Below, piece after piece: positions 1,230 through 46,101 of a DNA stretch of 64,000 nucleotides (positions within the stretch are counted from its first letter, which is position 1; each line of letters opens with the position of its first letter). Origin of the DNA: Kiloniellales bacterium. GTDB taxonomy: Bacteria > Pseudomonadota > Alphaproteobacteria > Kiloniellales > JAKSDN01. The notes beneath the pieces were generated by a model. That model searched no databases, was not told where the DNA came from, and saw only the letters and a program-made list of their open reading frames with translations. The translations under genes and the position numbers were made by a program. The stretch spans positions 3,357 through 67,356 of the forward strand of contig JAWWCG010000001.1 of NCBI GenBank assembly GCA_033720555.1, in the 5' to 3' direction.

Positions 1230-3107
1230 ATGGGCACGATCACGGTGGCCCTTCCCGTCCCTGCGGGAACGGGCGTGGGCGGCGCAGTTAGCACGGCGTC
1301 TCTAAATATCGACAAGACGGTCGTCGTTGGCGGCGAGTTTCGAGGGTCTCTTATCATCGAAGCGTCCGCAGGTGGCTTATCGTTCTGCCAGGTGGCGACA
1401 TTCACGCAGCCAGGCAATCAGCGATTGACGATCTGCGCAGACGAGATGCGAGTCCGTGTGCCAGGGCCGGCAGTGGTCGCGAGCGTCGACGTAGGGGCGG
1501 CAGACGCGGGCTGCGCTTTTTCTGGGGCACTCGATGTCCCGGCCGGCAATGGGCTGGGGGCTCCGACCAATATTGCGACTCTTGGGACCTTGATGACGGC
1601 GCTTGTGGGAGACGCCGACTTTACGGGGACGCTGGAAGTCCTCATTAGTTATGACGGGGTTGACTACTCGCAGGTGTTTGCGACGTTTACCCGAGCAGGC
1701 TGTAAGACCAGGTCGGCGCCGGCGATTTTTTGTCGCGTGCGTCGCTCAGGGGTCGTCACAGGAACTCCGACGCCGCAGGTGCATATCGGCGCCCAAAATG
1801 ACTTTGCGACAACCACCGCCGCCCCGACAGGCGGCGTCCTGCCATTGCGCGCTGGTCCGATTTCTGGGACAGGGTTTCCGTCCGGCGAAATCGCGCTCGT
1901 GGACCCCCTGGGGCCGAATGCCGCGGACGATGGAAGCCTTGCGACACCATTTTTGACTCTTCAGGGCGCCATTGACGCCTCGGTGTTGCCTACAACGTCA
2001 GCGGAGGCCAACCAGAGGTTTGTTGTTCAGGTTGTTCCAGGGGCCTACGACGAGGACCTCACGGTTCCGCCCGCGCGACGCATCTTGTTCAACTCGTCCG
2101 GAGGTGTGACGCTGGGTGACGCAGCGTTGGCGGGCGGCGCGTCGACCACGCCAAGAAACGTCACGGTTCAAGTCGATGGAAGCCTAGAGCCGGCGGGGAT
2201 GGTTCCGTCAACAACCTTCACGACGACGGAAGACGTCAATGGGTTCATTGGCACCCTAACAACCTTTGCTCTTGGATGGACGATTTCCGGAAGCGTCAAT
2301 GTTACAGATGTTGGCGGTGTCGCGAGTGAGCACGCGCTGATCTTCGGGAAAGTGCGCATCGAAGGAAATGTCGACGGAACGGGTGATGCGACAGGTGGAT
2401 CGGAGCCTCTGATCGGGTTTTCGAGCTGCGTAGTGCAGGGAACAATAAACTACCCCCTGGCCGATCTTCTTCTTTCGAACAACTCCATCTACGAGGACCT
2501 TGTCACCCTCGATCAATATGGGCTTATCGAAAATTGTCGCTTCGAAGGGGGTATGACCATCACGTCAGTGCCCGTGATTCCTCCGCCACGGGGGCTTGTG
2601 AACACCAACCTTCAGGGGACGTTTACCGGCCCAAGTAGCTCCCTGGTCATCGATTCGGAATCCAATCGAATATTTGTCGAAAATGGTGGGGTTCTTGCGG
2701 GCGGGGCAACTCGGCAGTTTCGCGGCAGTGCAAACTCCCAGTTCTGGGGCAATACATCTATCGCGGCAAGCGCGGACACGCGCTTTTTGCAGTTCGGCTT
2801 TGGCACAGGGACGGCCCCGACCACGCCAACGTTTCAAGTGCTGGCCGGGTCATCGGGCACCGCGGTCGCGATCATTGCGACGCACGGAAGCTCCGCCGGC
2901 AATGGGGCTCCCGTCGACTATCGGCTTCGAGTAAACGGAATCGATACGGCGCTTACGGTCTCGCTCGTCACGGGTGCGGAGGGGACCGCAAGTGCGACAG
3001 CCGAGGTTGATGTCGTCGCAGGCGACCAGATCGACGTCGTGGCCGTCAAGGCCGCCTCAATCGGCTCGGGGGGAATCGACGTGTCCGTGCAAATTCTTTC
3101 CTTCTAG
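1230..3107 (+). CDS. Tailspike/fibre paralog 1 (duplicated N-terminal module, beta-helix-like centre, C-terminal domain shared with 43552..45411)
   Basis: 625 aa. Residues ~5-190 are two tandem copies of the module found in five other genes (LPVPAG-G-G ... FCQVA ... MRVRV). The motif TPFLTLQGAIDA...GAYDEDLTVPP matches TPFATLQGAINA...GLYEEDLTIPP in 43552..45411. Confidence 0.75.
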   Translation: MGTITVALPVPAGTGVGGAVSTASLNIDKTVVVGGEFRGSLIIEASAGGLSFCQVATFTQPGNQRLTICADEMRVRVPGPAVVASVDVGAADAGCAFSGALDVPAGNGLGAPTNIATLGTLMTALVGDADFTGTLEVLISYDGVDYSQVFATFTRAGCKTRSAPAIFCRVRRSGVVTGTPTPQVHIGAQNDFATTTAAPTGGVLPLRAGPISGTGFPSGEIALVDPLGPNAADDGSLATPFLTLQGAIDASVLPTTSAEANQRFVVQVVPGAYDEDLTVPPARRILFNSSGGVTLGDAALAGGASTTPRNVTVQVDGSLEPAGMVPSTTFTTTEDVNGFIGTLTTFALGWTISGSVNVTDVGGVASEHALIFGKVRIEGNVDGTGDATGGSEPLIGFSSCVVQGTINYPLADLLLSNNSIYEDLVTLDQYGLIENCRFEGGMTITSVPVIPPPRGLVNTNLQGTFTGPSSSLVIDSESNRIFVENGGVLAGGATRQFRGSANSQFWGNTSIAASADTRFLQFGFGTGTAPTTPTFQVLAGSSGTAVAIIATHGSSAGNGAPVDYRLRVNGIDTALTVSLVTGAEGTASATAEVDVVAGDQIDVVAVKAASIGSGGIDVSVQILSF

Positions 3108-11097: not shown

Positions 11098-11339
11098 TGC
11101 TTGGCTGGCTTCTAGGCCCACGATGGGCATGGTTTGCTGCTGGCGCGGCAGCCATGTGGTGGTACGAGAACAAGATCAAGGAAGCGCCTCCGAAGTTTTC
11201 ATCGGCCGCGCTGGCAGGCACAGACCGATACGTATGCCAGGAAAGCCCCAAGGGGCGCCTCTGTTACGACAAAAAGCTCAAGCGGTATGTCTCGACCAAC
11301 TACTGCGATAGCTACCATGAGCTGGAGGCGGCTTTCTGA
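11097..11339 (+). CDS. small membrane protein
   Basis: TGATG overlap with the upstream gene. N-terminal helix LGWLLGPRWAWFAAGAAAMWWY. Confidence 0.55.
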   Translation: MLGWLLGPRWAWFAAGAAAMWWYENKIKEAPPKFSSAALAGTDRYVCQESPKGRLCYDKKLKRYVSTNYCDSYHELEAAF

Positions 11340-13690
11340 TGGCTGGGAAAGTTGCTACTCGGAAGAATCCTCCCGTTAAGGCGGATCACTTTTATCACTA
11401 TTCAGATCGGCCGATGGCGCCGTCGTACCGTGATTCAGTGGAGTTTGGCTCAACGCCTACCGGAGTCTACTTTTACCAAGCCGATGCCTTCAAGACACCA
11501 GGTGTCAACTTTGGGGCAGGACGTAAGCATGTCCATGTCGCGCGTTCCTTGGTTCCGGTTCTGAATCTCCGCGACTACACGAAGGAGCAGTTGCGGCAGG
11601 ACCTGGCGACGCTCCGCGATCTTGTCGGCAAAGAGCAGATCGAGCAGATCCTGCGTCGCTGGCCCAAGTATAAGAGTCAGTTCGGTGCAGTGGCGACGTT
11701 GCCGGCGGCACAGTTTTGGTACGTGCTTACCAAGATCTGGGATCCGGGCGACTCAGGGTTTGATGTCATGTTCGTCCGCGACCCTGACGACCCGGATGAT
11801 GCGCCAAGTTTTGGCGATGTGCGCTACCCCAACGATGCAGTCCTTGCAAACCGTTTGCTTCGGGCGCTTGGGTATCGCGCCGTCATGGATCCCGGCCTTG
11901 GCATCATCTATTCGGGGGAGCCCGTGCAAACGTTTTTTACGGACGATGACGCCTTTGAGCTAGTTGATGCGTTTCCGACGAAGGAGCTTGTTCGACAAAA
12001 CCCCACCCTAGAATTCTCAGACGACCGGCTCCTGCTGGAGTCGTTTGAGGACCTGCACGGCTACAACGGGCCTGATGGGGTCACGTTCGAGTACGATGCC
12101 AGCGGCAACGCGGTGGCCGTTTACCTCACCGAAGCCGGGGCGCGTGCCATGCTGGCTGATGCCATCGAGTATGGTTACGAGTCCGTTGAGTTTGCATTGA
12201 AGGACGGGCTTCGTTCGAATCCAACGACAGGCATGACGGCGAAAGGGCGTCGCATGGAGCGCCACGTCGCCAAGTCGGGCAGCGCCTACGCCCCCAGCGC
12301 CGTCGTCTACGCTGCGGCAAAGCGTGGGACGAAAGGTCTCGTAACGAGGGAGTGGGCTAAGAAACACGGGTACCCGTCGCCGAATCCCGCTGTGGCGATG
12401 CACCCAGACCTTTTTGAAGGCGAAAGCCCGATCTACGTTTCGATGGAAAAGCTCTCGCCCGAGCAAATCCGAGCGCTCCCTCTTAGCGCCTTCAATGAAA
12501 AGGAGTGGGAGTCGCTCGACCCGGAGGACCAGAATTACATCATTGAAAACGATCCCAAATACGGCGAGATCGTTGAGCAGGCGAAAGAAGCGTACGAGGC
12601 GGCCATTCCTGAAGATTGGGATTGGTCAGACATTGTTGACGACGACGCAGAAGAAATGGTGCGGGATGATTTTGGCGCCATGAGCGAGTCCGATTTTTCA
12701 TCATGGGTAGCAATGGCGCGCAGAAAGTCGGGCGACCCAAGTTTGCGGGCGTTGATTCATCGGCTTGAAGAAGCCGGCATGGATAGTTCCGATGTGGCGG
12801 ACAATCTCGTCGAGGCTTTAGCAGACGAGAGCAATTGGAGTTTTTCGGCCGCAGATTGGGGTGAGGGCGGGTTCCTCACGTATCCCGTGGACGAGTATCC
12901 CGTGGAGATTGATTGGTCGACCTACGTCGACACGCCGATGGCAGACCTTCCTGTCGCGGTGCGAAGATATGTGGCGCGGCAAATCGAAGAGTACACCGAG
13001 GGGCGCATCGTCCTTGACGAACGAGATATCGCGCAACGCTACGGGACGTCGGTCTACGTCGACACGGGTCGTGTTGGGATTGGTGACCCAGATTTGGAAA
13101 CCATCGAGGAAAGCATTAAGGAGGATGTGGGACTCAATTTTGTGGATCCGCGTTCGTATGAGGAACGCAAAGCCGCGACGTATCGTGATGGTTTCTACAT
13201 CGTCGAGTTGACATCGCCGGAATTACGCAAGGAGGGCGAGGAACTCGGGCATTGCGTCAGCGATCCAAGCATGGGCTATATGCGCGCGATTGCGGACGGC
13301 GAGGCGCGCATTTACTCGCTGCGCACGGGCAAGGATCGCAGCAAATTTACGATCGAAGTTCAACTAGAGGACGATAAGCCCTATGCCGTTGTTCAGGTGA
13401 AAGGCAAGGCGAATCGAGTGCCCGGCTGGGGTCGCGAGCCTGGCGAAGGCAAGTTCAAGATTCAGGAGGTGTCGATGCTCCTCGACTTTATCGAAAACAA
13501 ACTGGGCCTCGATCCCGAGGACGTCGAAGACATGGAGCCTGCGCTCCAGCATCTTCACAACGAGCGCGAGGCAGGTCGCGGCCAGCTCATGAAGATCAAC
13601 CCGGGCTGGCGTCCGTCTCGCACCTTCTGCATGCCGAGCGGCGGCGGTGAGCGCAGTGCTGACTGCCCTCACGGGCGGTGCCTGCGATGA
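11339..13690 (+). CDS. Large multidomain (polyvalent-type) protein with C-terminal PcfJ-like domain
   Basis: 783 aa. C-terminal block LRKEGEELGHCVSDPSMGYMRAIADGEARIYSLR resembles the PcfJ HC motif. TGATG-coupled to the upstream gene. Several apparent linkers end in x-N-P. Confidence 0.65.
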   Translation: MAGKVATRKNPPVKADHFYHYSDRPMAPSYRDSVEFGSTPTGVYFYQADAFKTPGVNFGAGRKHVHVARSLVPVLNLRDYTKEQLRQDLATLRDLVGKEQIEQILRRWPKYKSQFGAVATLPAAQFWYVLTKIWDPGDSGFDVMFVRDPDDPDDAPSFGDVRYPNDAVLANRLLRALGYRAVMDPGLGIIYSGEPVQTFFTDDDAFELVDAFPTKELVRQNPTLEFSDDRLLLESFEDLHGYNGPDGVTFEYDASGNAVAVYLTEAGARAMLADAIEYGYESVEFALKDGLRSNPTTGMTAKGRRMERHVAKSGSAYAPSAVVYAAAKRGTKGLVTREWAKKHGYPSPNPAVAMHPDLFEGESPIYVSMEKLSPEQIRALPLSAFNEKEWESLDPEDQNYIIENDPKYGEIVEQAKEAYEAAIPEDWDWSDIVDDDAEEMVRDDFGAMSESDFSSWVAMARRKSGDPSLRALIHRLEEAGMDSSDVADNLVEALADESNWSFSAADWGEGGFLTYPVDEYPVEIDWSTYVDTPMADLPVAVRRYVARQIEEYTEGRIVLDERDIAQRYGTSVYVDTGRVGIGDPDLETIEESIKEDVGLNFVDPRSYEERKAATYRDGFYIVELTSPELRKEGEELGHCVSDPSMGYMRAIADGEARIYSLRTGKDRSKFTIEVQLEDDKPYAVVQVKGKANRVPGWGREPGEGKFKIQEVSMLLDFIENKLGLDPEDVEDMEPALQHLHNEREAGRGQLMKINPGWRPSRTFCMPSGGGERSADCPHGRCLR

Positions 13691-21105: not shown

Positions 21106-21657
21106 TTAGAACTCCAGCTTCCACAGCGTCATCGACGACGAGGTGTCCATGTTTTCTGTGCTACCGGCAGCGTTCGCGTTTTGGCGATATTGAAATCGCA
21201 AGCTGGTCACGTTCGTCGCCGTATCGTTCCAGTAGATGTTTCCGGTACGAACCGGCGCTAGCGGCAGGTTGGGTAGCGTTCCTGTTGCATCGGGAGTGAT
21301 GCGGCTGTCCTGGACATGAATCAGGCGCATGCCCGCGCCAGAGCGGGCAATGAAAATACCGAAGAACTGACAGATTGAGCCAGTTTGCGGGTTGGTGTCC
21401 GCGATGTCGGCGCCTGCAATAACGGCAATCGAGCCGGCAAGGTTCGAAAATCGAAGAGAACCCTGCCCTCCTGCGACGTCAGGGTCAGAGGGGACCGTCG
21501 AGTTGATATCAAGCATAAGGCCAAAGCCGCTGGCCGCGGTCGAGATCACCCTGCCCTGCCAGACGTATCCTCCATCGACGTCTCCGTTGAGCCCTGTAAA
21601 AAGAAAGGTTGGATCAGGGGTCGTAATCGTCTGGGTTTCAATGAGCGCACCGATCAC
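21106..21657 (-). CDS. small beta-rich structural paralog (FxGLxGDxD family), member 2
   Basis: FLFTGLNGDVDGGYVWQG block. 4-nt overlap with the upstream gene. Confidence 0.55.
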   Translation of the reverse strand: MIGALIETQTITTPDPTFLFTGLNGDVDGGYVWQGRVISTAASGFGLMLDINSTVPSDPDVAGGQGSLRFSNLAGSIAVIAGADIADTNPQTGSICQFFGIFIARSGAGMRLIHVQDSRITPDATGTLPNLPLAPVRTGNIYWNDTATNVTSLRFQYRQNANAAGSTENMDTSSSMTLWKLEF

Positions 21658-22373
21658 GAGGTCACCAGATGGTAGAGGTGAAAAGACGACCCTTGGCCGA
21701 TGCCCGTAACAACGGCATCGGCAGCGTTGACCGACGTCAGGTCGATGGAGGTAATGGCGGTGCTGTTGGCAAAGTTATCGCCGCCCTGCCCGCACGTTCC
21801 CTGGGACGCAAGGCCGTTTCGGGCAAAATGCCAAATCGGCATGCGTTGGTTGGCAAAGGCGTCGCCGGTGCTGGTCGATGCCGCGTTGAATGAAGCCCAC
21901 CCTTGAATGATCGCGGCGGTGTCGGCGACCTGTGTGACGAGCTTAGCGATGTCTCCGTCAGCCTCGGCAGCATCGGCGGCTGCAGAGGAGGCATACAGGG
22001 CAGATACGGGTTTGGCGGCCTGTTGGGCAATGCCGTTGTAGTTCCAGCGTAAACCGTTGGCGGAGTTGATCTTGTACCAATCAACGAGCAAAAAATAGAA
22101 AACCTCGGTGTCCCCCGATAGGCCAGAGAACGAGATCGAGGACGTGTCGGCGCCGACGTCGATTGTCTCAAGAAGCGTGACCGTGTCGGGGATGCCTCGC
22201 TTGGACCAATCCGTGTCTCCTGGGCCGATCTTGGTGAACACACAGCCGTTCGTCGTCGACAGGAACATCGACCCTTCAAGGGCCGGCGTTGGCGTAATCG
22301 TCGGATCTTGGCTGCCAGAGAGGATGATCTGGCCGGGCGTTATCTCCAGCTCGTCGGACTTGTAGGCGGCCAT
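21654..22373 (-). CDS. fibre-associated protein: N-terminal motif shared with 22373..22555 + FxGLxGDxD domain (member 1)
   Basis: KSDELEITPGQIILSGSQDP...GSMFLSTTNGCVFTKIGPGDTDW parallels the 60-aa upstream protein. Then SISFSGLSGDTEVFYFLL. Confidence 0.55.
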   Translation of the reverse strand: MAAYKSDELEITPGQIILSGSQDPTITPTPALEGSMFLSTTNGCVFTKIGPGDTDWSKRGIPDTVTLLETIDVGADTSSISFSGLSGDTEVFYFLLVDWYKINSANGLRWNYNGIAQQAAKPVSALYASSAAADAAEADGDIAKLVTQVADTAAIIQGWASFNAASTSTGDAFANQRMPIWHFARNGLASQGTCGQGGDNFANSTAITSIDLTSVNAADAVVTGIGQGSSFHLYHLVTS

Positions 22374-22555
22374 CAGCTTAGCTGCGTCCAGTCGGTGGTT
22401 GCCGCACCGGTCTTTGAGTAAAGGGACCCGTCGTCGCGAAGGAACAGGGAGCCAATGGGTAAATCGAGACCTGTCGAGCTAGGGTCAATGGAGCCGCTCG
22501 TGATGATGACGCCGGTGCTCAGCTCGTATTCGTCAGACTTAATGGGTTTGGCCAT
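22373..22555 (-). CDS. 60-aa protein carrying only the shared N-terminal motif
   Basis: KSDEYELSTGVIITSGSIDP...GSLFLRDDGSLYSKTGAATTDW. 1-nt overlap with the downstream paralog. Confidence 0.5.
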   Translation of the reverse strand: MAKPIKSDEYELSTGVIITSGSIDPSSTGLDLPIGSLFLRDDGSLYSKTGAATTDWTQLS

Positions 22556-22582: not shown

Positions 22583-23428
22583 TTATCCGGCGATGATGAA
22601 TCGTAGCTCATCGCCCGCGGTCGGGGGTGCCGTCGTGATGACGCGAAAGTCCGTTGTCGTGCGATCAGGGCCGGCAATGTCAGGGCAATCAATGCCAAGG
22701 ATGGATGTCATCCCCTGGTTTGCAGGAAAGACGCTGTAGGTGTCGGTCGAGCGCGTGAATCCCAGAGGGACCATGAAGTCAGAGCCCTCGACCCCGGTTG
22801 CCGTGTAGGTGACAATGACGGGGTCGGTGAATGTGCCGCTGGATCCGCCGGGTTCCGGCGGCGCCGCAATGGAGACGTCTGGGGCCCCTCCCCCGCCCGT
22901 GCGGATGACGCGCGCAAACTGGCTAGGCTTGATGAAGTTTCGGCATCCGCCTGGTGCGGTGAAGCTGGTCGTGGCCAACTCGAAGTTGACGTTGTCTTGG
23001 CTGATTTCGACGCCAATCGAGCCCGTAAAGCGGCTCGGAGAAGCCACGATGACTGTCGACAGATCGCCCAGTGCGGAGACGTCCGAGCTAGCTCCGACGC
23101 CTGGCGTTGGGGGTACCGCGAGTGTCACGGCTGCAATGGTGGTTTCCTCGCCCTGGACGTCGACCGAATCCACGGTTCCGATGGATAGGCCCTGTACGCG
23201 GACGCGCGCGTCGGTGGCGCCAAAGGTAAGGGTCTTGGCGCCGGGGGCCTGGAAGAGTGCGACCTGGCAGAACTCCCCGCCGTTGTTCGCTGCCTCGATG
23301 ATCACATTCCCGTTGCGGAAGCTGCCAGAGACAACGATGGTCTTGAGAGAGTTGATGCCGCTGATGTCGCCGGTGGTGCCGACGCCATTTCCGACGGGGA
23401 TGTTCAGGGCTACACCGACAGTGGCCAT
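22583..23428 (-). CDS. Fibre paralog 6 (duplicated N-terminal module + short C-terminal domain)
   Basis: 281 aa. MATVGVALNIPVGNGVG...FCQVALF...ARVRVQG, then LAVPPTPGVGAS...GVEISQDNVNFE...FARVIRTGGGGAPDVSI. Confidence 0.7.
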   Translation of the reverse strand: MATVGVALNIPVGNGVGTTGDISGINSLKTIVVSGSFRNGNVIIEAANNGGEFCQVALFQAPGAKTLTFGATDARVRVQGLSIGTVDSVDVQGEETTIAAVTLAVPPTPGVGASSDVSALGDLSTVIVASPSRFTGSIGVEISQDNVNFELATTSFTAPGGCRNFIKPSQFARVIRTGGGGAPDVSIAAPPEPGGSSGTFTDPVIVTYTATGVEGSDFMVPLGFTRSTDTYSVFPANQGMTSILGIDCPDIAGPDRTTTDFRVITTAPPTAGDELRFIIAG

Positions 23429-23431
23429 TGC

Positions 23432-23728
23432 CTACTCCTTGGGCTCTAGAACGGCTCGAAGAAACGGAGCCGCGTGAATCATGATCGCGGGATTGTATGG
23501 AGCGCTTGGTTCGGAGATGACGTCTCGTAGAAGCTCCCAGTGCGCCGTGTCGAGCTGAACAGTGCCGTTGGCTTCTTTGACGAGCCGGATAATCTCGACG
23601 GCCTGAAAGATGGTTTTTGCAGACGCGCCGAATTTGCGGTCGCTGGTCATGCCTTCGACCCATTGGGCAAAGCTAAGGTCGTCTCCGTTGGGGAGAGTGA
23701 CGGGCGGCGGGACGGTAAGAGTCTTCAT
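23432..23728 (-). CDS. small protein between fibre genes (possible adaptor or chaperone)
   Basis: 98-aa ORF overlapping the stop of the 914-aa fibre gene by 4 nt. Confidence 0.5.
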   Translation of the reverse strand: MKTLTVPPPVTLPNGDDLSFAQWVEGMTSDRKFGASAKTIFQAVEIIRLVKEANGTVQLDTAHWELLRDVISEPSAPYNPAIMIHAAPFLRAVLEPKE

Positions 23729-26469
23729 GCAGTTGTATTGTCGGTGATGAGGTTGAGGCTTCCTGCTGCCAGGGCCGTCAGCAGGCTGGTGAGGGCGGCG
23801 TTGCCGCCGCGTGAGCCCGTAACGGACGGCTGGGCAACAGGAGCGCCGCCGAAGAATGCAATTCCGGTGTCGTTTGTCTCAAAGAGTGTGCCGAGATCTT
23901 GGGCGTCGCGGACAATGAATGAGCCAGGCGTGCCGCCGCCGTCTTCGTCGCCAGGAATGATGATGACGTCTCCGCCGTCGTCAGGGCCCCCGCCTCCAGC
24001 GTCGCCAGCAAGGATGCGAATGTCGGCGCCGGCGCCGGCGGGGTTGTTTGTTCCCTCCACGGTGCCAACGCTGAGGATGTCTCCAGTCTGCATGTCGAGG
24101 TTTGCGCCGACGGACATCGTGAGGCCGTTGACGAACGACATCCCGTTGCCTTGGAGGTTGAGCGTCGTCTGGCCGAAGGCGTACTCAAGCGCGCCATTGA
24201 TGCGCATTTCGACCTGCCCTGTCGGAGTGGTTGCGGTGACGTTGTTGACGAGGGTGGAGTCAAAGTTTGCGCTAGCCGCGCCGGTCCAGTAGGTCGCACG
24301 CAACGCAAGCTGCGGCGAGTCGCGGAGCTGCGAGCCAGCATCCGCGTCGATAGCAGTGAGGACCTGGTCGGCGGTAAAGAAATTTTGGATAGCCCAGCGC
24401 GCGATGGGGGTGTAGGCGCCTCCGTTTTCACTGACCTGAAAATTCTGGTCTGTGGCATTGAAGACAAGGCGCCCAGTGTTGGCCGGGGCAGCGCCAAAGG
24501 CAGAGCCGTCGAGAAACGCCTCGCCGCGGACGTTGAGGAGGTCGCCACCTTGAAGGTCGACGTCGCCGCCGGCCTGCATGGTGATCGTCGCTGGATTTAG
24601 GACGTCACCCCCTTGGAGATCGATGTCGCCGCCAGCCTGCATTTGAATGAGGCTGGCGTTGAGCATTGCATGAGTCTGCAAGTCGAGAGAGAGCGGCGAG
24701 CTGGCGTTCGGGCCATTGATGAGCATGGCCACTGATTCGCCAAACTGCGGCCCAATCAGAAAACGGAGATCATGCTGCGGTGTGGCGCCGGAGGCGGTGA
24801 CGACATGGGTGAGGACGGCGCCAAGGTCCTCGTTGGCAGCGCCATCCCAGGAGGAGCCGATTAGTGAAAATCGCGGGGAGTTTCGTTCGGTCGTCACGCC
24901 GTCAGTGACCAGAGGGCTGAGGCGAACGGCGCCGTCGTTGAACAGCGAATAGCGAGAGCGCGCATAGTCGTTTTCGACCAAGCGCATTTGCTCCTGTCCG
25001 TCTGGTGGCGGGCCACCGAGCGCGTTGGAGAGCTTTTGTATGGTAATGGCATTGCCGACCTGTTCCTGGGCAAGCATGCAGCCGGCAAAGTTGGGGACCG
25101 TCGTGCTTTCCCAGAGGCCGATGAAGTGGACGGAGTTGGGGAGGCTCAGCGGCACATTCATTGTGTCTCGTTGAATGGTGCCGATAAAGCCGCGGGTAGA
25201 GTCGACGAACGTGGCCGCCTCATAGCCGACGGCGCCAAAGCCAAAGAGGATGGTGTCCCAGGCGTCGCCATGGCCAAAGTGAATGACTTTGCATCCGCCG
25301 CCGGCGGTGGCATCGGCCTGGTTGTCGGTAATTTCTAGGTATAGCGCCCATGGCTGAAGGCCGCCGGGTCCTGGATTGGGGTCGACCTTGCAGTACCATG
25401 CAGCGCTTTCGAATTGTCGAAATGTGTTGGCCGGCGGTGGGTGCGCGTTTTGCGCGATACGCACTGGAATGGTCTGCGGGTTGGGGCCGCCCGTGTTCTC
25501 CAGATTGACGATCTCGTAATCCCCAATTTCTAGGACCGTGAAGGGTGTGGGTCCTCCTTGGGCGAGCGGGCCATTGGTCGTGAAGGCAATGCCGCCCATC
25601 GCGATGTTCGGATCGCCTGCTCGCCCGGACTGAGGGCGGAGCTGGATATCCATCGAAATGTTCTGAGAGGTAGACCCATCCCAGGCGGAGCCTAGCGTGA
25701 AGTAGGATCCGGCGCGTTGCTCCGTGGCAACAGCATCCGACGCCGTGTTGTTGACGATCTGGAGCGCCGGCGTTGTTCCGAGTTGAAAGTTGTTGGTCTG
25801 AAGATCGACCGGCCCCGCATCGACAAAGATGAAGCGCCCTACGTTGTAGGCGTCATCAAGGCTGCCTCCGCCTCCTCCTCCTCCGGAAACCTCGGCCGAG
25901 GCAATGCTGACATCAGGCGTCCCTCCGAGGCCCGTTCGAACTACACGCGCGAAGCGAGCCGGCGCCACCTCCGTCGAGCACCCCCCCGGGTCGGCAAACG
26001 AAGGCGACGCCGTCTCAAAATTGGCATTATCCTGGCTAATCTCGACTGCAATGGTTCCCGTGTATCGGGTCGCATTGTTTGCAACAAGGACCGTAAACTC
26101 GCTGGAAATGGGCTCGACGTTTACGGACGCACCGACGCCAGGGCCCGCTGGTACGGGCAAGCTCGCAGTCGACACAGATGCTGCCTCTCCCTGGACAGAG
26201 ATTGCATCGACTGCGCCGCTGCGAAGGTTGGCCACGCGCACGCGCATGTCCGTGCAGGCGACGGGAAGTACCTGGACGCCAGGGCGAGTAAAGCTGGCCG
26301 CCTGGCACCATGGGCCACCGTTGTTGGAGATCTCAATTGTCACGGTGCCACCAACAAACTCGGCAGCACTGAAAACAAACGATTTGACGATGCCAAGCGC
26401 AGCAACGGAGGCCGCGGAGCCGACTCCGTTGCCTGCTGGCAGCGGTAGGTTTACGCCCGTGGTGGCCAT
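23725..26469 (-). CDS. Large fibre/tailspike paralog 5 (914 aa)
   Basis: Duplicated N-terminal module. The C-terminal ...TGIAFFGGAPVAQPSVTG...LTSLLTALAAGSLNLI resembles the common phage fibre C-terminal block (FFGa.PvaqP). Confidence 0.8.
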   Translation of the reverse strand: MATTGVNLPLPAGNGVGSAASVAALGIVKSFVFSAAEFVGGTVTIEISNNGGPWCQAASFTRPGVQVLPVACTDMRVRVANLRSGAVDAISVQGEAASVSTASLPVPAGPGVGASVNVEPISSEFTVLVANNATRYTGTIAVEISQDNANFETASPSFADPGGCSTEVAPARFARVVRTGLGGTPDVSIASAEVSGGGGGGGSLDDAYNVGRFIFVDAGPVDLQTNNFQLGTTPALQIVNNTASDAVATEQRAGSYFTLGSAWDGSTSQNISMDIQLRPQSGRAGDPNIAMGGIAFTTNGPLAQGGPTPFTVLEIGDYEIVNLENTGGPNPQTIPVRIAQNAHPPPANTFRQFESAAWYCKVDPNPGPGGLQPWALYLEITDNQADATAGGGCKVIHFGHGDAWDTILFGFGAVGYEAATFVDSTRGFIGTIQRDTMNVPLSLPNSVHFIGLWESTTVPNFAGCMLAQEQVGNAITIQKLSNALGGPPPDGQEQMRLVENDYARSRYSLFNDGAVRLSPLVTDGVTTERNSPRFSLIGSSWDGAANEDLGAVLTHVVTASGATPQHDLRFLIGPQFGESVAMLINGPNASSPLSLDLQTHAMLNASLIQMQAGGDIDLQGGDVLNPATITMQAGGDVDLQGGDLLNVRGEAFLDGSAFGAAPANTGRLVFNATDQNFQVSENGGAYTPIARWAIQNFFTADQVLTAIDADAGSQLRDSPQLALRATYWTGAASANFDSTLVNNVTATTPTGQVEMRINGALEYAFGQTTLNLQGNGMSFVNGLTMSVGANLDMQTGDILSVGTVEGTNNPAGAGADIRILAGDAGGGGPDDGGDVIIIPGDEDGGGTPGSFIVRDAQDLGTLFETNDTGIAFFGGAPVAQPSVTGSRGGNAALTSLLTALAAGSLNLITDNTTA

Positions 26470-26472
26470 GGC

Positions 26473-28446
26473 TTAGCTCGTCCGAGTGGTGATCATTGAG
26501 AAGTCGCCGATGGGAGCTGTCGACGTTCCGTCAAGGCCGCGCGTCAGGTTTCCGTTGTAGCCCGCAACCTCTTCGAACTCGCCGGCGCCGGTGCCGTAGC
26601 TGACGGCGCCACCACCGGACACCTCCAAATCACCGCTCAGGCCCGTAATGGTGCAGCGCTGACCGCCATTGACGCGCGCCAGGCCGCCGAATCGACATGC
26701 AAGGCCAACGTCTTCGTTGTCCTTGCCCGTGACGGCGGGAATACCGCCCCCGCTATCCATGCGAAGGCGACTGCCGTAGCCGTGGACAAGTATTCCTGGG
26801 CCGGAGGCCGTTCCATAGACAGAAACCGTCTGCGCCGCTTGAAGAACGCCGCTAAAGCCAGGAGTAGCGGCGTTTTGACCGGTCCCAATCTCAAACGGAG
26901 CCCCAACCACTAGGATGCACGTTCCGTCATCCGTCCCCGTGTTAATGGGGCTGGAACCGCTGTCGAGGCGTGCGGCCGGCGTTGCTTGAGATGTGCATCC
27001 ATGAATGGCACCAAACTCGCTGATTGTGTTGACGTAGTTGGCGGCCCCACCATTGATGTTTAGGCCGGAAAGAAATGTGCCTCGGCCCATTCGGCAACGG
27101 TCGAACGTGAGGAACGTGTCCGCACACCAGATGTTGGAAAATTCGAGGCGTTCAAAGTTGGCGCCGTCCGTTTCGCTGGAGCCTAGGGCGCCCGCGTTGG
27201 CCGTCCCCGCACCGCCAGAGATGTTGACCAGCCCCGCGTTGGCGCCGCTCGCCGAAATTCGAACCGCCGGGTTGACGATCTCGACCGTGTCTCCGGCAAG
27301 AAAATTTGTTGCCGTGGAAATGTCGATGACCAAAGATCCCGAATCATTGTCGGTGATAGGGCACTCGAAGATGACAAGATTTCCTCCGCGAGTGACCCGA
27401 ACGAAGCGGCCGCGGAGGTCATCGTCGGTCCAGCTGGCCGACGCAGACATGTTGAGGCGCGTCCGCTGTCCAGCGCCGTCGGGCGCTTCAGTCTGGTCAA
27501 CGCGCTCGGCAGGCGTGGTCCCGTCAAGAGTTGCCGTGTTCGAGCCCGTGGCGAGCGTCGTGTCCAAGAGCATCGCCGGCCCGCGCCATTGGGTCGCATT
27601 TTGCGCGACTCGCATCCCTGGCGTCAGATGGATGCCATCGACCGTATAGTTGTCGACGACGCCCGAGCTGTTCAAGAAGTTGACAATGATCGTTGATTGC
27701 TCATAGAGCTGATACGCCGTGCGTCGCTGCACCTCCTGGATCGTTTCCAGAGGGGCGCCAGGATCCGTGCCAATGTTGGCATCGTTGCCGACGTTCTGGT
27801 CGACATAGTAGTTGATGGTGGTGCCGTCATCGCGAGACGTAAGGCCGGCGGTGTCGCCGGCGCCCCCGCCCTGCCCTGCGGGCTCTGCCGACACCCAGAC
27901 GTCCTCGACGCCGCCGTCGCCCGTGCGCACCGCGCGCATAAAGACGCTGGGGGCCACGACCGTCTGGCATCCTCCAGGGGACGCCTTGGAAAGGCCAATC
28001 TGGCTGTAATTGGTGCCGTCTTGGCTAGTTTCGACGTGGATCGTGCCCGTGTAGGTGGCGGCGCTATGGATGTAAATACTGGTGACGTCGCCAAGGGCGC
28101 TCACGTCAACAGAGGCGCCGGCGCCGGGCGTCGATGGGATGGGAAGCTCGACGGCCACAACATCGGTGGCGGTGGCTTGCACATCAACCGCCGTGACCGT
28201 TCCGATGGTGTTGCCTTGAACCGTGACGCGCATTTCGGTCGCGGCAAAGGCGATGCGCCGTTGGCCGGCGCGCTGGAAAAAGGCGACCTGGCAGAACGAG
28301 CCGCCGGCCGATGCCTCGACGATAACGTTGCCGTTGAAGTCGCCGGTGACGACGATGGTCTTGATGGTGCCGAGGTTGGACGTCGAGGACGCGGCCCCGG
28401 TTCCATTTCCCGGCGGGATGGTGAGTGATACTCCCGCAGTTGCCAT
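26473..28446 (-). CDS. Tailspike paralog 4 with beta-helix (pectate-lyase-like) body
   Basis: Duplicated N-terminal module. YYVDQNVGNDANIGTDPGAPLETIQE, then repetitive G/N/T-rich turns (VNISGGAGTANAG..., LNINGGAANYVNT...) typical of right-handed beta-helices. Confidence 0.75.
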   Translation of the reverse strand: MATAGVSLTIPPGNGTGAASSTSNLGTIKTIVVTGDFNGNVIVEASAGGSFCQVAFFQRAGQRRIAFAATEMRVTVQGNTIGTVTAVDVQATATDVVAVELPIPSTPGAGASVDVSALGDVTSIYIHSAATYTGTIHVETSQDGTNYSQIGLSKASPGGCQTVVAPSVFMRAVRTGDGGVEDVWVSAEPAGQGGGAGDTAGLTSRDDGTTINYYVDQNVGNDANIGTDPGAPLETIQEVQRRTAYQLYEQSTIIVNFLNSSGVVDNYTVDGIHLTPGMRVAQNATQWRGPAMLLDTTLATGSNTATLDGTTPAERVDQTEAPDGAGQRTRLNMSASASWTDDDLRGRFVRVTRGGNLVIFECPITDNDSGSLVIDISTATNFLAGDTVEIVNPAVRISASGANAGLVNISGGAGTANAGALGSSETDGANFERLEFSNIWCADTFLTFDRCRMGRGTFLSGLNINGGAANYVNTISEFGAIHGCTSQATPAARLDSGSSPINTGTDDGTCILVVGAPFEIGTGQNAATPGFSGVLQAAQTVSVYGTASGPGILVHGYGSRLRMDSGGGIPAVTGKDNEDVGLACRFGGLARVNGGQRCTITGLSGDLEVSGGGAVSYGTGAGEFEEVAGYNGNLTRGLDGTSTAPIGDFSMITTRTS

Positions 28447-28493
28447 GCTCCTAGACTACTGATTTTGGGAGCTTCGCGCGAGAAGGTTGGGAG

Positions 28494-28590
28494 GCGACGC
28501 CGCCCTTCTCGGGCGGCGTCGCAGTGGTGGACAAAGGGACAGGGATCAGGAGCTTGGATTCCGCTGCCCCTGGGGTACGCCAGGGGCAGC
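28494..28590 (-). terminator. Two perfect GC-rich hairpins between the small-gene operon and the fibre operon (no U-tract)
   Basis: GCGACGCCGCCC-ttctc-GGGCGGCGTCGC (28494-28522) and GCTGCCCCTGG-ggtacg-CCAGGGGCAGC (28563-28590), downstream of the 28614 stop. Confidence 0.4.
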
Positions 28591-40954: not shown

Positions 40955-41614
40955 TTACATGTTGACAATACGGTAGCCGGGAAGCGCAACCGCCAGGGTG
41001 CCTTCCGTTGGAGGCGTCGCTGCGTTGTTGAAAAGGATGCGTTCGTACGTTGGAAAAAACTGCGCGGTCGCGTTCGGGACCAGAAGCGTCGGTACCGAAA
41101 GGGGGATGAGCTGGTCGGGGCGCGAAAGAAACGCCGGCGTCGGCAGGTTCTGAAAATTGCGTTGACTGCCCGCATCGACCATTTCCCAGCTGATAGCGAC
41201 CAGATCCGTATTGAAGTCCTGGCCTGCCGCAGAGGCTTGCAAAGGAAGCGGCCAGCCGGCAGCGACCGGGCGCCACAGGCCGAACGCCGTGGCCGTGTCG
41301 GGCGCGCTGGGCCGCCAGACGGCCATTGGATAGTGCGTCATGACGAACGGCCCGTCCTGGCTTACGAGGAAGTTGATGGGTTGACCCCGGCGCCCATCGT
41401 CAGAGATATCGAACGTGATAGTTCCGTTGAGGTTGTAAAAAATTCGCCGCCCGGGAATTTTATCGATTTCCTCCGTGATCGACGGGACGCGGTCCGCCAT
41501 CTTCGCGACGATATCCGTCTGCGCTTTAAGGGCGGTGATCTGCTGGGTAAGCGTGTTGACGCGCTGAGAGACTTTCGTAAGGCTCTCGCGTACGTATGAG
41601 GCAAAGTCAGCCAT
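40955..41614 (-). CDS. structural protein: N-terminal coiled coil + beta-rich (jelly-roll-like?) domain
   Basis: ATG 41614. LTKVSQRVNTLTQQITALKAQTDIV, then alternating beta-type sequence (FLVSQDGPFVMTHYPMAVW...AISWEMVDAGSQRNFQN...GYRIVNM). Confidence 0.55.
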   Translation of the reverse strand: MADFASYVRESLTKVSQRVNTLTQQITALKAQTDIVAKMADRVPSITEEIDKIPGRRIFYNLNGTITFDISDDGRRGQPINFLVSQDGPFVMTHYPMAVWRPSAPDTATAFGLWRPVAAGWPLPLQASAAGQDFNTDLVAISWEMVDAGSQRNFQNLPTPAFLSRPDQLIPLSVPTLLVPNATAQFFPTYERILFNNAATPPTEGTLAVALPGYRIVNM

Positions 41615-41785: not shown

Positions 41786-42715
41786 TTACAGCGCAATCCA
41801 GTTCGTCATGCCGTCGGTTACGAAAAGGTTTGCACCGCTCGCCGCGATGGCAAACGGCCCGGCGATGAGGTCGATGGTGTCACCGCCGGTCGGCGTTACC
41901 GTGAGGGCTGCGCCGGGAATGATTTCCTTGATCCAGGCACCTGTGCCTGCCGGCAATGACGCCGCCAAGGGAAGCGGCTGCGCAATGGCGCCACCGCTTG
42001 TGTCGAAAAGAAGAATGGCGTTTGGAATCACCGCCGCCGCGGGAAGAGGAGCTGCGGACGGTGGAGCGCCCGGCGGAGGATCTTGCAAAAGAATGTTGGG
42101 CTGTACCAGTGCCGCAATGTTTTCGGCGCCAACCCAGACGACAGGAGTACCCGAGCCGCCCCCCGCAGATGTGTTGTTTCTTGTGACTCGCAAGAATGGA
42201 TACGCCTCATCGGCCTGGCTTTGGCAATCCGGCGACTGAAAGGAAAGCGACGTCGGAACAAAATTGACGTCATCGAGCGAGCCCTCAATGGTCAGCGTGC
42301 CCGCATAGTCGCTGTCGCCCGTCGCCTGCACGACAAACGTTCGAATAGCTCCCGCAGTGGATAAATCGACGCTTGCGCCGGAGCCGTCGCCGGCGGTCAC
42401 GGGTAGCATCGTGAATGAATTCGCAAGGGTTGCATCAATCCCGCCAACGTCTATGGTTGCGCCCGAGGCGTCGCCGTTTGTAACCGTGACGCGCATTTCA
42501 TCGGCCACGGCGCCAATTTGCTTCGTTCCTGGCGACGTGAACGTAACGACCGGACAGAAGGAGCTTCCCCCAGCGGATACCTCAATGTTCACCGATGCGC
42601 CGGTGAGCGTGCCGCTGACGGCGATAACCTTTGAAAACCCAATGTTGGCCGTGCTGGCAGCGGCTCCGGAGCCGACGCCGGCCGGCGCAGGTAGATTTGC
42701 GGTAAGAATGGGCAT
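41786..42715 (-). CDS. Fibre paralog 3 (duplicated N-terminal module + short C-terminal domain)
   Basis: 309 aa. LPAPAGVGSGAA...SFCPVVTF...MRVTVTNG, then LPVTAGDGSGAS...FLRVTRNN. Confidence 0.7.
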   Translation of the reverse strand: MPILTANLPAPAGVGSGAAASTANIGFSKVIAVSGTLTGASVNIEVSAGGSSFCPVVTFTSPGTKQIGAVADEMRVTVTNGDASGATIDVGGIDATLANSFTMLPVTAGDGSGASVDLSTAGAIRTFVVQATGDSDYAGTLTIEGSLDDVNFVPTSLSFQSPDCQSQADEAYPFLRVTRNNTSAGGGSGTPVVWVGAENIAALVQPNILLQDPPPGAPPSAAPLPAAAVIPNAILLFDTSGGAIAQPLPLAASLPAGTGAWIKEIIPGAALTVTPTGGDTIDLIAGPFAIAASGANLFVTDGMTNWIAL

Positions 42716-42727: not shown

Positions 42728-43552
42728 CTAGTTGGCTTTGATGAGCGTGATGCGGCGATTGTAAATGTTGACCGTACCGGTTCCGGATGCGCGCCGGAAA
42801 ATGGCGCGAATCCCGTCGCCTGTCGTAAGGCCGGAGAAGAGATGCGTCGTCGTCGAATTGCGCCGGGAGGAGCCTTGCGTTTGCCTTGCAGTTCCTGCCA
42901 CCGCTGTGGTGGTGGAGTTTAGGCCAAGGGCGATTTCGCCAACCGTGTTGTTGGTGGTGTTGTCCGTATCGGTCTCAAAAATGGCAAGGTAGTCTCCGTC
43001 CTCCGAAGGATTGAGGGCGCTACCAAACGCTGCCGCAAACGTTGCCGATGTTGTCCCGGATGAGCTAGTCGAGTTCTGACTGGCAGCGGCGTTGGATGTT
43101 GCGCTCGCGGGTATTCCGTCAAGTTTACTTTTGTCCGCGGCCGACATGAAGCCGGAGACGCCGGCTGTCGCCGCCGTGTGAAGTGTTCCCCCGCCTCGGC
43201 TTCCGTGAGCATGTACGTGGTCGGATCGAGGAAAGCTGTTGGCAGAGCCCGCGCTATTTGTGGTGTCGGAGATCGCTATGGGTGCTCCCAGGGAGAGCGG
43301 ATCGCTTCCGGAGGGGGCGTGTCGGCTGCCGTGAGTGTCAAGGTCGACCTGCGGGTTGCTTAGGTCGAGGACGAACCCAACGGACTCCATAAATTGGTCA
43401 AGAGTGTCAACGGCTCCTGACACGGCGTCGTCGATTTGCAGGACAACGCCCTCGGTGAACGTGGAGACGCCTGACGCAGTGGGAGACACTTCTATCTGAA
43501 GGCGCTGGTTGGATACGCCAGCGCGACGGTATATGCGTTGAACAATCGCCAT
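42728..43552 (-). CDS. Tail-fibre-like protein
   Basis: HGSRHAPSGSDPL ... FPRSDHVHAHG ... AGVSGFMSAADKSKLDGI are motifs common in phage tail-fibre proteins. Ser/Thr-rich linker. Confidence 0.7.
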   Translation of the reverse strand: MAIVQRIYRRAGVSNQRLQIEVSPTASGVSTFTEGVVLQIDDAVSGAVDTLDQFMESVGFVLDLSNPQVDLDTHGSRHAPSGSDPLSLGAPIAISDTTNSAGSANSFPRSDHVHAHGSRGGGTLHTAATAGVSGFMSAADKSKLDGIPASATSNAAASQNSTSSSGTTSATFAAAFGSALNPSEDGDYLAIFETDTDNTTNNTVGEIALGLNSTTTAVAGTARQTQGSSRRNSTTTHLFSGLTTGDGIRAIFRRASGTGTVNIYNRRITLIKAN

Positions 43553-45516: not shown

Positions 45517-46101
45517 CTACTGCACATCACGTGTTTGTAGGCCGTCCAGCATCAGGAGGATGACCTTCTGATCATCAGTTGCGCCGCCGTTGATAAGAGT
45601 CAGCGCGTCGGTGGTCCCAACCGAGAACCATTCCATGTTAGCGTTAAAATTTTGCCGGACCGGGACCACAATCGGTCGCGCCAATTTCATGATGGCATCA
45701 GCTGAGGGCCAGCCGTGATTGTAGATCGGCGTTGCGGCAGCGGCACCGCCGTCTCCAAACACGCCGCCGCCGGCAGGCAGGTACCAGCTGGGGCACTGAA
45801 ACTGCGGCTTGTCGCCAAGGTTAAGCGTTACGTACAGCTGAGACACGGTCTGCTGATACAGCTCGCGGATGTTCGTGCCATCAAAATACAGCCAGAGGCG
45901 AAGCGACAGGATCACATAAGTTTGATCCGAGGCCAGTTGGCCCGCCACTTGAAGATTGGTGAGCGCCAAGTTCCCCACATTGGCGTTCCCGAAAAGTCGA
46001 GTCGATGGGGTGATGGGAGTCGCCGGCGTTCCAGTGGTCCGAATCAGGCTATCCCAAAACGGTTGATGGCGACGTTCTCGAATACCATGAAGACGAGGCA
46101 T
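45517..46101 (-). CDS. abundant-looking beta-rich structural protein (capsid candidate)
   Basis: 194 aa. Strong SD (GAGGAAGG) after a structured 195-nt leader, and a hairpin after the stop. Beta-strand-like sequence (TYVILSLRLWLYF, LYVTLNL, VILLMLDG). Confidence 0.55.
   Translation of the reverse strand: MPRLHGIRERRHQPFWDSLIRTTGTPATPITPSTRLFGNANVGNLALTNLQVAGQLASDQTYVILSLRLWLYFDGTNIRELYQQTVSQLYVTLNLGDKPQFQCPSWYLPAGGGVFGDGGAAAATPIYNHGWPSADAIMKLARPIVVPVRQNFNANMEWFSVGTTDALTLINGGATDDQKVILLMLDGLQTRDVQ

Follow-up and report, generated by a model that had tools for sequence, protein, structure and literature searches.

Six paralogous genes, each opening with one tandem N-terminal module (hereafter the anchor) followed by distal parts of different kinds, probably encode particle-surface host-recognition proteins of a virus-like element, a closed circle of 69,078 bp. 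They were located within a window of 64,000 nt, meaning the whole stretch of DNA analyzed (positions 3,357 to 67,356 of contig JAWWCG010000001.1). A preliminary description had placed the six genes at three loci on both strands; an ORF check with translations recovered all six at the same coordinates and strands, and an HMM search in all six frames of the reconstructed circle gave exactly six module genes and no seventh:

1230..3107, + strand: paralog A, 625 aa; tandem anchor at aa 1 to ~190 (nt 1230 to ~1800)
22583..23428, − strand: paralog B, 281 aa; tandem anchor, then a predicted beta-sandwich head of ~80 aa
23725..26469, − strand: paralog C, 914 aa; tandem anchor, GGGGGGG hinge, and 714-aa body
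26473..28446, − strand: paralog D, 657 aa; tandem anchor, Gly-rich hinge, and 457-aa body
41786..42715, − strand: paralog E, 309 aa; tandem anchor, then a head of ~110 aa
43552..45411, − strand: paralog F, 619 aa; TTG start, tandem anchor, and a body paralogous to that of A

Shine-Dalgarno-like sequences preceded five of the six ORFs, including GAGG at A (which lay directly downstream of, and adjoined, an Amidase_2 gene) and GGAGG at F, where the TTG start was additionally backed by the family alignment; the exception was C, which was coupled to the stop of D located 3 nt before the C start.

Alignment of the N-terminal ~200 aa of the six proteins displayed 27 invariant columns and 38–48% identity to the first sequence, and pairwise BLASTP of residues 1 to ~190 gave 34–52% identity (E 3e-16 to 2e-56, computed with composition-based statistics); the anchor similarity was therefore not compositional. 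The shared N-terminal module proposed in the preliminary description was thus borne out, as were its two tandem copies, which represented a true internal duplication: the profiles of copy 1 (aa 1 to ~90) and copy 2 (aa ~97 to 190) aligned in hhalign with 98.3% probability, E 2.3e-14, and 36% identity over 81 columns, each repeat being ~90–95 aa long and carrying, by our own reading of the sequence, a discoidin-like motif IE.S.DG..W/F. Pfam, PHROGs, and NCBIfam gave no significant match covering residues 1–200 of any of the six, the PDB sequences gave no match to the module, no Pfam match to PF00754 or PF22633 (discoidin/galactose-binding-like) was obtained for the anchors at E ≤ 0.1, and no T7 gp17-N, T4 gp9/gp10-, P22 gp9 head-binding, or BppU-like attachment domain was recognized in them. 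The preliminary description had not recognized the module as a known family, which agreed with these four resources, and we call it a new anchor family. Reading of the N-termini (MANLF.../MAT.GV...) revealed no signal peptide or transmembrane segment, which fits proteins assembled in the cytoplasm.

Different bodies followed the shared module, as described before: B, C, D, and E had only the N-terminal region in common (BLASTP), while A and F were indeed full-length paralogs (44% identity, 629 columns, E 6e-142). None of the six bodies had a significant Pfam, NCBIfam, or PDB-sequence match, and the weaker signals were as follows: (i) a beta-helix-cap-like motif of A (~aa 235–285) weakly matched NCBIfam PRK10531 at aa 235–282 and (ii) an N-cap-like motif of F (aa 232–283) weakly matched PHROG 4577 'tail protein' (E 7.6e-4). 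The large bodies of A, F, and D are possibly beta-helices. The C body displayed no internal repeat at the BLAST level and matched only P0123 among the family representatives, while the B head recurred in family members P0014, P0095, P0099, and P0108, the D body was common to at least seven other members, and the E head domain recurred in 28 of the 149 other family proteins compared, sometimes twice per protein. The AF2 model of B, the shortest paralog (pLDDT 92.1), had a small head behind two beta-sandwiches in tandem, its three all-beta domains spanning roughly aa 1–95, 99–190, and 204–281; the distal parts of B and E are taken as small beta-sandwich heads.

In an exhaustive search of public metagenomes, whose proteins are clustered at 50% identity, 1012 cluster representatives matched the module at E ≤ 1e-3, and for 787 of them E was 1e-10 or lower. 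The module nearly always occupied residues 1–200; among the 154 best matches (total length 188 to 1195 aa), it began within a few residues of the N-terminus in every protein except one that was N-truncated. A Gly-rich hinge was frequently visible behind it, and the distal parts were mosaic and reused between family members; Pfam domains among 82 members included Beta_helix (4), pectate-lyase-like (3), Laminin_G_3, and F5/8 type C (single matches, scanned over full-length proteins), and ConA-like domains were also present in distal parts. Several relatives held two to three module genes within 20 kb, and the module was found in elements binned with hosts of different phyla.

The neighborhoods of the paralogs contained four further genes of interest:

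45517..46101, − strand: 194-aa protein, very highly conserved; capsid-like candidate
42728..43552, − strand: 274-aa protein between F and E, without the anchor
40955..41614, − strand: 219-aa conserved protein; candidate second capsid or vertex protein
23432..23728, − strand: 98-aa ORF between C and B, with a 4-nt overlap with the end of C

The 194-aa protein had 673 clusters at E ≤ 1e-3, with 66–81% identity among the 120 matches listed, and occurred on contigs of 55–180 kb from Alphaproteobacteria, Gammaproteobacteria, Myxococcota, and Gemmatimonadota bins. Its AF2 model, of medium confidence (pLDDT 72), was beta-rich; the best PDB folds were SH1 virion chains, a weak match (E 2e-3, probability 0.99), the SPV1 capsid protein matched with TM 0.44/0.47 and probability 1.0 (E within 2e-3 to 1e-2), and further jelly-roll capsids were among the PDB matches, none reaching E ≤ 1e-3. 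In its modeled fold the protein thus bears a weak resemblance to jelly-roll capsid proteins of two tailless viruses, SH1 and SPV1. Between genomes, the anchors were ~40–50% identical and the bodies unrelated, and their difference from the 66–81% of the capsid-like protein would be the contrast expected for receptor-binding proteins versus capsid.

Paralog F was the next gene after the 194-aa gene, 105 bp downstream; the same slot held a module gene in relatives L006 and L030, and module genes lay 6–10 kb downstream in other relatives. The 219-aa gene stood directly behind the 194-aa gene in most relatives, while F, the 274-aa gene, and E were inserted between the two here. The 274-aa protein, in which tail-fibre-type motifs (HxH, SGFMSAADKSKLDGI) were read from the translation and which gave weak PHROG matches including 7389 'tail fiber protein' (E 0.0024), is a possible accessory fibre or partner. 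The 98-aa ORF had no family match and might be an assembly factor, a 60-aa ORF followed B, and an Arg-rich protein gene adjoined the capsid-like gene.

In the explanation considered probable, all functional steps of which we infer from architecture and gene linkage, the N-terminal anchor would dock each protein independently and in parallel on one kind of particle site, the distal part would bind or cleave a host surface structure, and new specificities would arise both through recombination of distal domains behind the hinge and through duplication of the genes in tandem (B/C/D) or their dispersal (A/F). With the anchors only 34–52% identical, different docking partners among the six are possible. 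The preliminary description had taken the module for the virion-attachment adaptor of a branched multi-tailspike arrangement; the adaptor role was retained, being consistent with the conserved N-terminal anchor and the swappable distal parts, while the branched, tail-mounted arrangement was not. Branched multi-RBP systems use different docking domains in a hierarchy, and six anchors of the same type point to parallel attachment at equivalent sites rather than to a branch.

It is unlikely that the element is a tailed phage whose six proteins are baseplate-mounted tailspikes or fibres in a branched arrangement like those of CBA120, PhiK64-1, and SP6. Tailed-phage RBPs typically pair a conserved N-terminus with variable bodies, the BFVD fold matches of the anchor comprised minor tail, J-like, BppU, and tail-fibre proteins besides one F5/8-type-C protein, and the PHROG matches of F and its 274-aa neighbor, a weak T4_gp9_10_N match in 2 of the 82 relatives (Pfam), and the listing of relatives as viral contigs in IMG/VR were counted in the same direction. 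Among the 96 proteins of the closed genome that lack the module, however, Pfam, PHROGs, and NCBIfam detected no terminase, portal, HK97 capsid, tail tube/sheath, tape measure, or baseplate family, with the largest proteins additionally scanned one by one; in three divergent relatives, the larger proteins flanking the capsid-like gene likewise lacked tailed-phage morphogenetic families. No plausible Walker-A motif was present in the called proteins or in six-frame ORFs of at least 80 aa, no ATPase family match was obtained in the genome with the same three libraries, the largest non-module proteins were a PcfJ-like protein and a coiled-coil protein, and none of 50,697 GenBank phage records was similar. 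Extreme divergence could account for the missing terminase and tail matches. The presumed particle nevertheless appears tailless, and the terms tailspike, fibre, and branched multi-tailspike were not supported, given that neither recognizable tailed-phage core genes nor a plausible Walker-A motif turned up, that the 194-aa neighbor has a weak likeness to capsid proteins of tailless viruses, and that all six carry a single anchor type, where the branched systems of tailed phages have distinct docking domains.

For the host-recognition explanation, a tail baseplate is a less likely docking site than the vertex or capsomer of a jelly-roll capsid without a tail, a step proposed with less assurance than the preceding ones. 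The element comes from a large uncultivated and undescribed lineage, probably of tailless viruses. We put forward tentatively, as possible rather than probable, that the six proteins are alternative vertex or capsomer spikes of undescribed tailless large bacterial dsDNA viruses (with a genome of 69 kb in this element and as much as ~180 kb in divergent relatives) with a shell of ~191-aa single-jelly-roll proteins and without a packaging ATPase; by analogy with SPV1, assembly may proceed around an Arg-rich nucleoprotein core, and the tandem beta-sandwich anchor would be a lineage-wide socket for swapping host-recognition heads.

The polarity might also be the reverse, the discoidin-like module binding a common glycan, lipid, or peptidoglycan and the variable C-termini serving as anchors or enzymes, which was likewise considered unlikely. 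The top PDB folds for the two-domain anchor were tandem discoidin domains (Foldseek probability 1.0, E 2.5e-4 to 1e-2), namely the ligand- or membrane-binding F5/8-type-C domains of neuropilin and coagulation factors V and VIII, and on these modeled folds the anchor could have a binding activity of its own; the F5/8-type-C protein among the BFVD matches is in line with this, and a broadly conserved ligand could explain why the module was kept across host phyla. These fold matches were weak ones to generic beta-sandwiches (TM ~0.3), however, and Pfam F5_F8_type_C was absent from the module. The variable parts, for their part, included lectin-like and beta-helix domains, typical binding or depolymerase modules; six unrelated bodies acting as C-terminal anchors would need six different docking sites, and anchors usually have the topology seen here, a strict N-terminal position followed by a hinge.

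A sub-variant of the particle-surface explanation, in which the anchor itself is a capsid building block (a penton-base- or capsomer-like tandem jelly-roll with built-in spikes), is rather improbable. Tailless membrane-containing viruses do have jelly-roll penton domains fused to spikes (PM2 P1, PRD1 P5/P31, and STIV A223), each anchor repeat was a compact beta-sandwich, the birnavirus jelly-roll capsid protein VP2 was among the PDB fold matches, and module genes adjoined the capsid-like gene in three genomes. The top 50 PDB matches of the anchor nevertheless included no double-jelly-roll capsid or penton structure, the anchor had no profile similarity to the 194-aa capsid-like or the 219-aa protein, and 34–52% identity would be unusual divergence for subunits that must co-assemble.

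Non-virion secreted or surface effectors of polymorphic type, with an N-terminal trafficking domain and variable payloads on a plasmid-like or integrative element, are highly improbable: their conserved N-terminus, Gly-rich linker, and variable C-terminus resemble polymorphic toxin loci, small ORFs followed some genes (98 aa after C and 60 aa after B), and the element encoded an integrase, RecET, and plasmid-type PcfJ-like and DUF3846 proteins, but no toxin, immunity, secretion-system, or trafficking family was found in the six or their neighbors (Pfam, PHROGs, and NCBIfam), the identifiable payload domains were of beta-helix or lectin types, the genes sat in a conserved syntenic, structural-looking module beside the capsid-like protein, endolysin-type Amidase_2 and SLT genes were present, and IMG/VR classed relatives as viral.

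Host recognition follows, as a standard, the logic of one conserved anchor and exchangeable heads. This anchor, found in no domain library, yet heads about 1,000 clusters, and defining the family would allow these proteins to be annotated and head-swapping and host-range evolution to be traced in elements that current phage tools leave almost unannotated. The surrounding genome may outweigh the six genes in importance; should these elements prove to be tailless viruses, non-tailed bacterial viruses would span a wider range of sizes and assembly strategies than is known.

Among known systems, the discoidin domains (neuropilin b1b2 and factor V/VIII C1C2) gave the best PDB fold matches to the anchor, in whose repeats a discoidin-like IE.S.DG..W/F motif was read, but the E and TM values were weak, PF00754 was absent, the repeats were ~95 aa instead of the ~150 aa of discoidin domains, and the setting was a virus-like element rather than a secreted lectin of eukaryotes or bacteria. 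PBSX XepA (PDB 6i56), second among the PDB fold matches (E 8e-4, TM 0.27, 13–14% identity), is a prophage-encoded protein that likewise has two beta-sandwich domains; no sequence relationship to it was detected, and XepA is a lysis-module protein without a variable distal part.

The multi-RBP tailed phages (CBA120 with TSP1–4, Klebsiella PhiK64-1, SP6/K1-5, and G7C), some of whose bodies are beta-helix depolymerases and whose heads are exchanged by recombination, resembled the element in having several RBPs per genome, putative ones in the element, with conserved N-terminal attachment and different distal bodies. They differed from it in three respects: (i) the searches here recovered no gene for a tail, baseplate, portal, or terminase; (ii) the six proteins had one anchor type instead of a hierarchy of docking domains; and (iii) the anchor was a tandem beta-sandwich, unlike T7 gp17-N or T4 gp10-type domains.

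The vertex proteins of tailless viruses (PRD1 P5/P31/P2, PM2 P1, STIV A223, and the SH1/SPV1 vertices) resembled the six, as these are modeled, in combining a beta-sandwich or jelly-roll N-terminus with a distal part that binds the receptor or, in the six, may do so, while no sequence or profile similarity connected the anchor with the solved vertex proteins. The known tailless jelly-roll families have genomes of ~10–31 kb and one or two spikes, in contrast to the 69 kb and six spike paralogs here. The FtsK/HerA-type packaging ATPase typical of Varidnaviria was not found in the element, and SPV1 is not known to encode one. SH1 and SPV1 were also nearest in fold to the candidate capsid protein, on weak evidence. 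Like SPV1, which has a circular genome with a glycosyltransferase and a methyltransferase and no recognizable DNA polymerase (PMC8459092), the element was circular and encoded a glycosyltransferase and a methyltransferase, with no DNA polymerase recognizable.

Six paralogous genes, located by the preliminary description at three loci on both strands, were all found and translated as open reading frames (ORFs):
A, 1230-3107, plus strand
B, 22583-23428, minus strand
C, 23725-26469, minus strand
D, 26473-28446, minus strand
E, 41786-42715, minus strand
F, 43552-45411, minus strand

Multiple alignment of the first ~200 residues of A to F gave 27 invariant columns and 38-48% identity to the first sequence, and pairwise identities of this N-terminal anchor were 34-52% over ~190 residues (BLASTP with composition-based statistics, E = 3e-16 to 2e-56); since this significance was reached under composition-based statistics, the shared module was real and a compositional-only similarity was refuted. 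Its two tandem copies were recovered by comparing profiles of residues 1 to ~90 and ~97 to 190 (hhalign probability 98.3%, E = 2.3e-14), and the anchor is thus an internal duplication. A and F, on opposite strands, were paralogous over their full length as had been proposed (44% identity, E = 6e-142); the similarity of B, C, D, and E was confined to the N-terminal region, and the body of C, a putative fibre, displayed no internal repeats at BLAST level. A Shine-Dalgarno-like sequence was present for five of the six genes, including F, for which the family alignment independently placed the TTG start codon; C had no such sequence and started 3 nt past the stop of D. No promoter or terminator enrichment was detected around the B-D cluster. 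A strong GC-rich hairpin (GCGACGCCGCCC-GAGAA-GGGCGGCGTCGC, minus strand) was located at window positions ~28490-28525, ~50-75 nt upstream of D; it was omitted by the simple terminator scan because no T-run followed the stem, and it suggests a transcript boundary ahead of the D-C-B cluster.

When 1.84 billion cluster representatives were searched exhaustively with HMMER, 1012 anchor relatives were recovered at E<=1e-3, 787 of them at E<=1e-10. Of the best 154 (total length 188 to 1195 aa), every protein except a single N-truncated one had the module starting within its first few residues; module proteins opened straight with the module (MANLF.../MAT.GV...), showed no signal peptide by reading of the sequences, and often carried a Gly-rich hinge behind it. 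The distal parts were mosaic across the family: of the 149 other family proteins compared, 28 shared the ~80-aa head of E, while the C-terminal ~120 aa of A and F recurred in seven or eight other members, the head of B in five, and the body of D in seven. Pfam recognized no domain in most of the 82 family members searched, and the remainder gave Beta_helix (4), pectate-lyase-like (3), and T4_gp9_10_N (2), plus single matches to Laminin_G_3, F5/8-type-C, and CHB_HEX_C. Such a layout, in which shuffled heads follow a conserved anchor and hinge, is the one expected for receptor-binding proteins. Relatives were examined as windows of <=20 kb; one Gemmatimonadota MAG scaffold harbored three module genes inside 6 kb, and further MAG labels on module proteins were Acidiferrobacterales and Kofleriaceae.

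The module belonged to no known family, as first described: searches of A to F against Pfam, PHROGs, and NCBIfam gave only sub-threshold noise (e.g., MlaD and MCE), searches of PDB by sequence and by profile, run with the anchor profile, C, D, F, and the profile of the capsid-like protein described below, gave noise only (e.g., de novo TIM barrels and a choline transporter), and anchor patterns matched in IMG/VR, yet tblastn confirmed zero relatives there. The anchor was thus outside every curated family searched. A confident AlphaFold2 model of B (pLDDT 92.1, 59-sequence alignment) was divided into three all-beta domains (approximately aa 1-95, 99-190, and 204-281). Its top PDB folds by Foldseek were tandem discoidin (F5/8 type C) domains of neuropilin and factors V and VIII, followed by PBSX XepA and birnavirus VP2, all of them weak matches (E = 2.5e-4 to 1e-2, TM ~0.3); the best BFVD matches were uncharacterised 'uncultured Caudovirales' proteins (E = 4e-8), with F5/8-type-C, minor-tail, J-like, and BppU-like proteins ranked lower. 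From this model and these weak fold matches, the anchor is predicted to consist of tandem, jelly-roll-like beta-sandwiches of generic type.

Of the virion-attachment adaptor proposed in the preliminary description, the conserved N-terminal anchor with mosaic heads was found, and docking itself is the step that we infer: the N-terminal module would dock the paralogs onto the particle, and the distal parts would recognise or degrade structures on the host surface. The opposite polarity, in which the discoidin-like module would be the binding part, is compatible with the fold but would call for six distinct anchoring bodies and is considered unlikely. Returning to N-terminal docking, the presence of a single anchor type in all six suggests that they dock in parallel at equivalent sites rather than in a hierarchy, and the branched multi-tailspike arrangement was therefore not retained.

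A large minus-strand block was syntenic with unrelated metagenomic contigs; the block and the genes of interest within it were as follows:
54990-34075, minus strand, block encoding, in order, proteins of 145, 171, 532 (coiled-coil), 158 (transglutaminase core), 346 (C-terminal TM), and 307 aa (PG-binding plus TM), ..., then 176, 95, 493, 194, 219, and 206 aa (TM), ..., then 217 and 402 aa (glycosyltransferase)
46297-47778, minus strand, Arg-rich 493-aa protein, directly upstream of the capsid-like gene
45517-46101, minus strand, 194-aa capsid-like protein
42728-43552, minus strand, 274-aa protein without the anchor, between F and E
40955-41614, minus strand, 219-aa protein

Almost all genes of the block had no family annotation, and several encoded C-terminally membrane-anchored proteins. 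The most conserved was the capsid-like gene, with 673 clusters at E<=1e-3; its best 120 homologs shared 66-81% identity, were almost all ~191 aa long, nearly all terminated in LQTRDVQ, and were carried by contigs of 55-86 kb. The capsid-like protein retrieved 18 IMG/VR contigs, and homologs at 33-44% identity lay on IMG/VR contigs of 94-179 kb; tailed-phage genes were sought by PHROGs among the larger proteins beside the capsid-like gene in three divergent relatives, and none was found. Its AlphaFold2 model (pLDDT 72) was beta-rich with one main helix, and the best PDB folds were SH1 virion chains, the SPV1 capsid protein, and then other jelly-roll capsids, none at E<=1e-3. The 219-aa gene immediately followed the capsid-like gene in nearly all relatives; in this genome F, the 274-aa gene, and E were inserted between the two, a module gene occupied the same slot in two related metagenomic loci (L006 and L030), and five IMG/VR contigs carried module genes 6-10 kb downstream of the capsid-like gene. 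Module genes were tightly linked to a conserved, structural-looking gene module. PRD1 P5 and P31 are related jelly-rolls; such a relationship among the anchor, 194-aa, and 219-aa proteins was rejected (hhalign probabilities only 0.1-2.7%).

In the 493-aa protein, the N-terminal half was duplicated and extremely rich in Arg (RRRRRTAARKNPTRRRRRAVAAAPRRRRR, twice), and the acidic C-terminal part carried repeated (S)EYV.(L/M)G motifs; conservation in relatives was limited to residues ~196-493, and the protein could be a DNA-condensing or core protein. The 274-aa protein contained, by reading, motifs frequent among tail fibres (HGSRHAPSGSDPL, HVHAHG, and SGFMSAADKSKLDGI), gave weak PHROG tail-fibre matches, and may attach via F or E. 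A second N-terminal mini-module (~55 residues, 44% identity) was shared by a 60-aa ORF (22373-22555) and a 239-aa ORF (21654-22373), both on the minus strand, and also headed 340- and 351-aa proteins beside a module gene in the related locus L010; 20527-21105 and 21106-21657 (minus strand) were tandem paralogs with 29% identity.

The window contig was binned in a 'Kiloniellales bacterium' MAG. Independent assemblies of the element had different break points, and joining the window with L003, a metagenomic locus of the same element, gave a closed 69,078-bp circle with exactly six module-bearing ORFs (six-frame HMM scan); genes in the 5,078 bp outside the window (L003:3694-8771) include those for a protein of 417 aa and for an SLT lytic transglycosylase of 351 aa. 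The public contigs, 69,219 and 69,133 bp long, equalled the circle plus 141 and 55 bp, read as assembler k-mer overlaps. The 96 other called proteins of at least 60 aa were batch-scanned against each library and gave (i) RecE/YqaJ, RecT, tyrosine integrase, and HNH endonucleases, (ii) methyltransferase, GT1/GT4 glycosyltransferase, DUF3846, PcfJ-like, and AcrVA2-like proteins, and (iii) SLT, transglutaminase core, and PG-binding matches and an Amidase_2 gene situated immediately upstream of A. Part of this content was placed as follows:
60567-63777 (plus strand), 3046-8001 (minus strand), and 11339-13690 (plus strand), DUF3846, AcrVA2-like (weak), PcfJ-like 783-aa, methyltransferase, RecT, YqaJ/RecE exonuclease, HNH, and tyrosine integrase
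4157-5002, the tyrosine integrase

Together with a Lar-like restriction-alleviation match elsewhere or within these regions of the genome, these genes make up a set characteristic of anti-defence or establishment regions.

The Pfam, PHROGs, and NCBIfam scans of these 96 proteins of the closed genome turned up no family for a terminase, portal, HK97 capsid, tail, or baseplate, and the tailed-phage frame of the preliminary description was not supported; branched tailspikes on a tailed phage are improbable, as this gene content contradicts them. The 69-kb element, which carried endolysin-type, integrase, and RecET genes, yielded no polymerase, helicase, or packaging ATPase family and no tRNA genes. 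Called proteins contained no Walker-A motif and, in a relaxed G[KR][ST] scan, no P-loop-like context; a terminase or packaging ATPase missed by gene calling was considered and rejected, the six-frame Walker-A scan giving only implausible matches in non-called frames. The 24-kb region, D, the capsid-like protein, and the family-consensus anchor had no match in 50,697 GenBank phage records (megablast and tblastn), and the capsid-like protein had no tblastn match in PLSDB plasmids.

The best available reading is a particle that lacks a tail and has a small jelly-roll capsid protein, though a weak one because the fold E-values were marginal and the particle is a prediction from the genes. A sub-variant of the docking model, in which the anchor itself would be a penton base or capsomer, is a doubtful prediction. 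Polymorphic effectors are very improbable, no toxin, immunity, or secretion signature having been detected.

The logic of an anchor with swappable heads in several copies per genome is already known. What is new is the anchor family, and its host element apparently belongs to an undescribed lineage, literature searches yielding no description of it. The genome of SPV1 is circular, with genes for a glycosyltransferase and a methyltransferase and no identifiable polymerase; its particle has single-jelly-roll capsid proteins and vertex complexes and contains both an inner membrane and a nucleoprotein core (PMC8459092). SPV1 serves as a loose analogy: in the present element the Arg-rich 493-aa protein is encoded beside the capsid-like gene, and several C-terminally membrane-anchored proteins are encoded in the same block.
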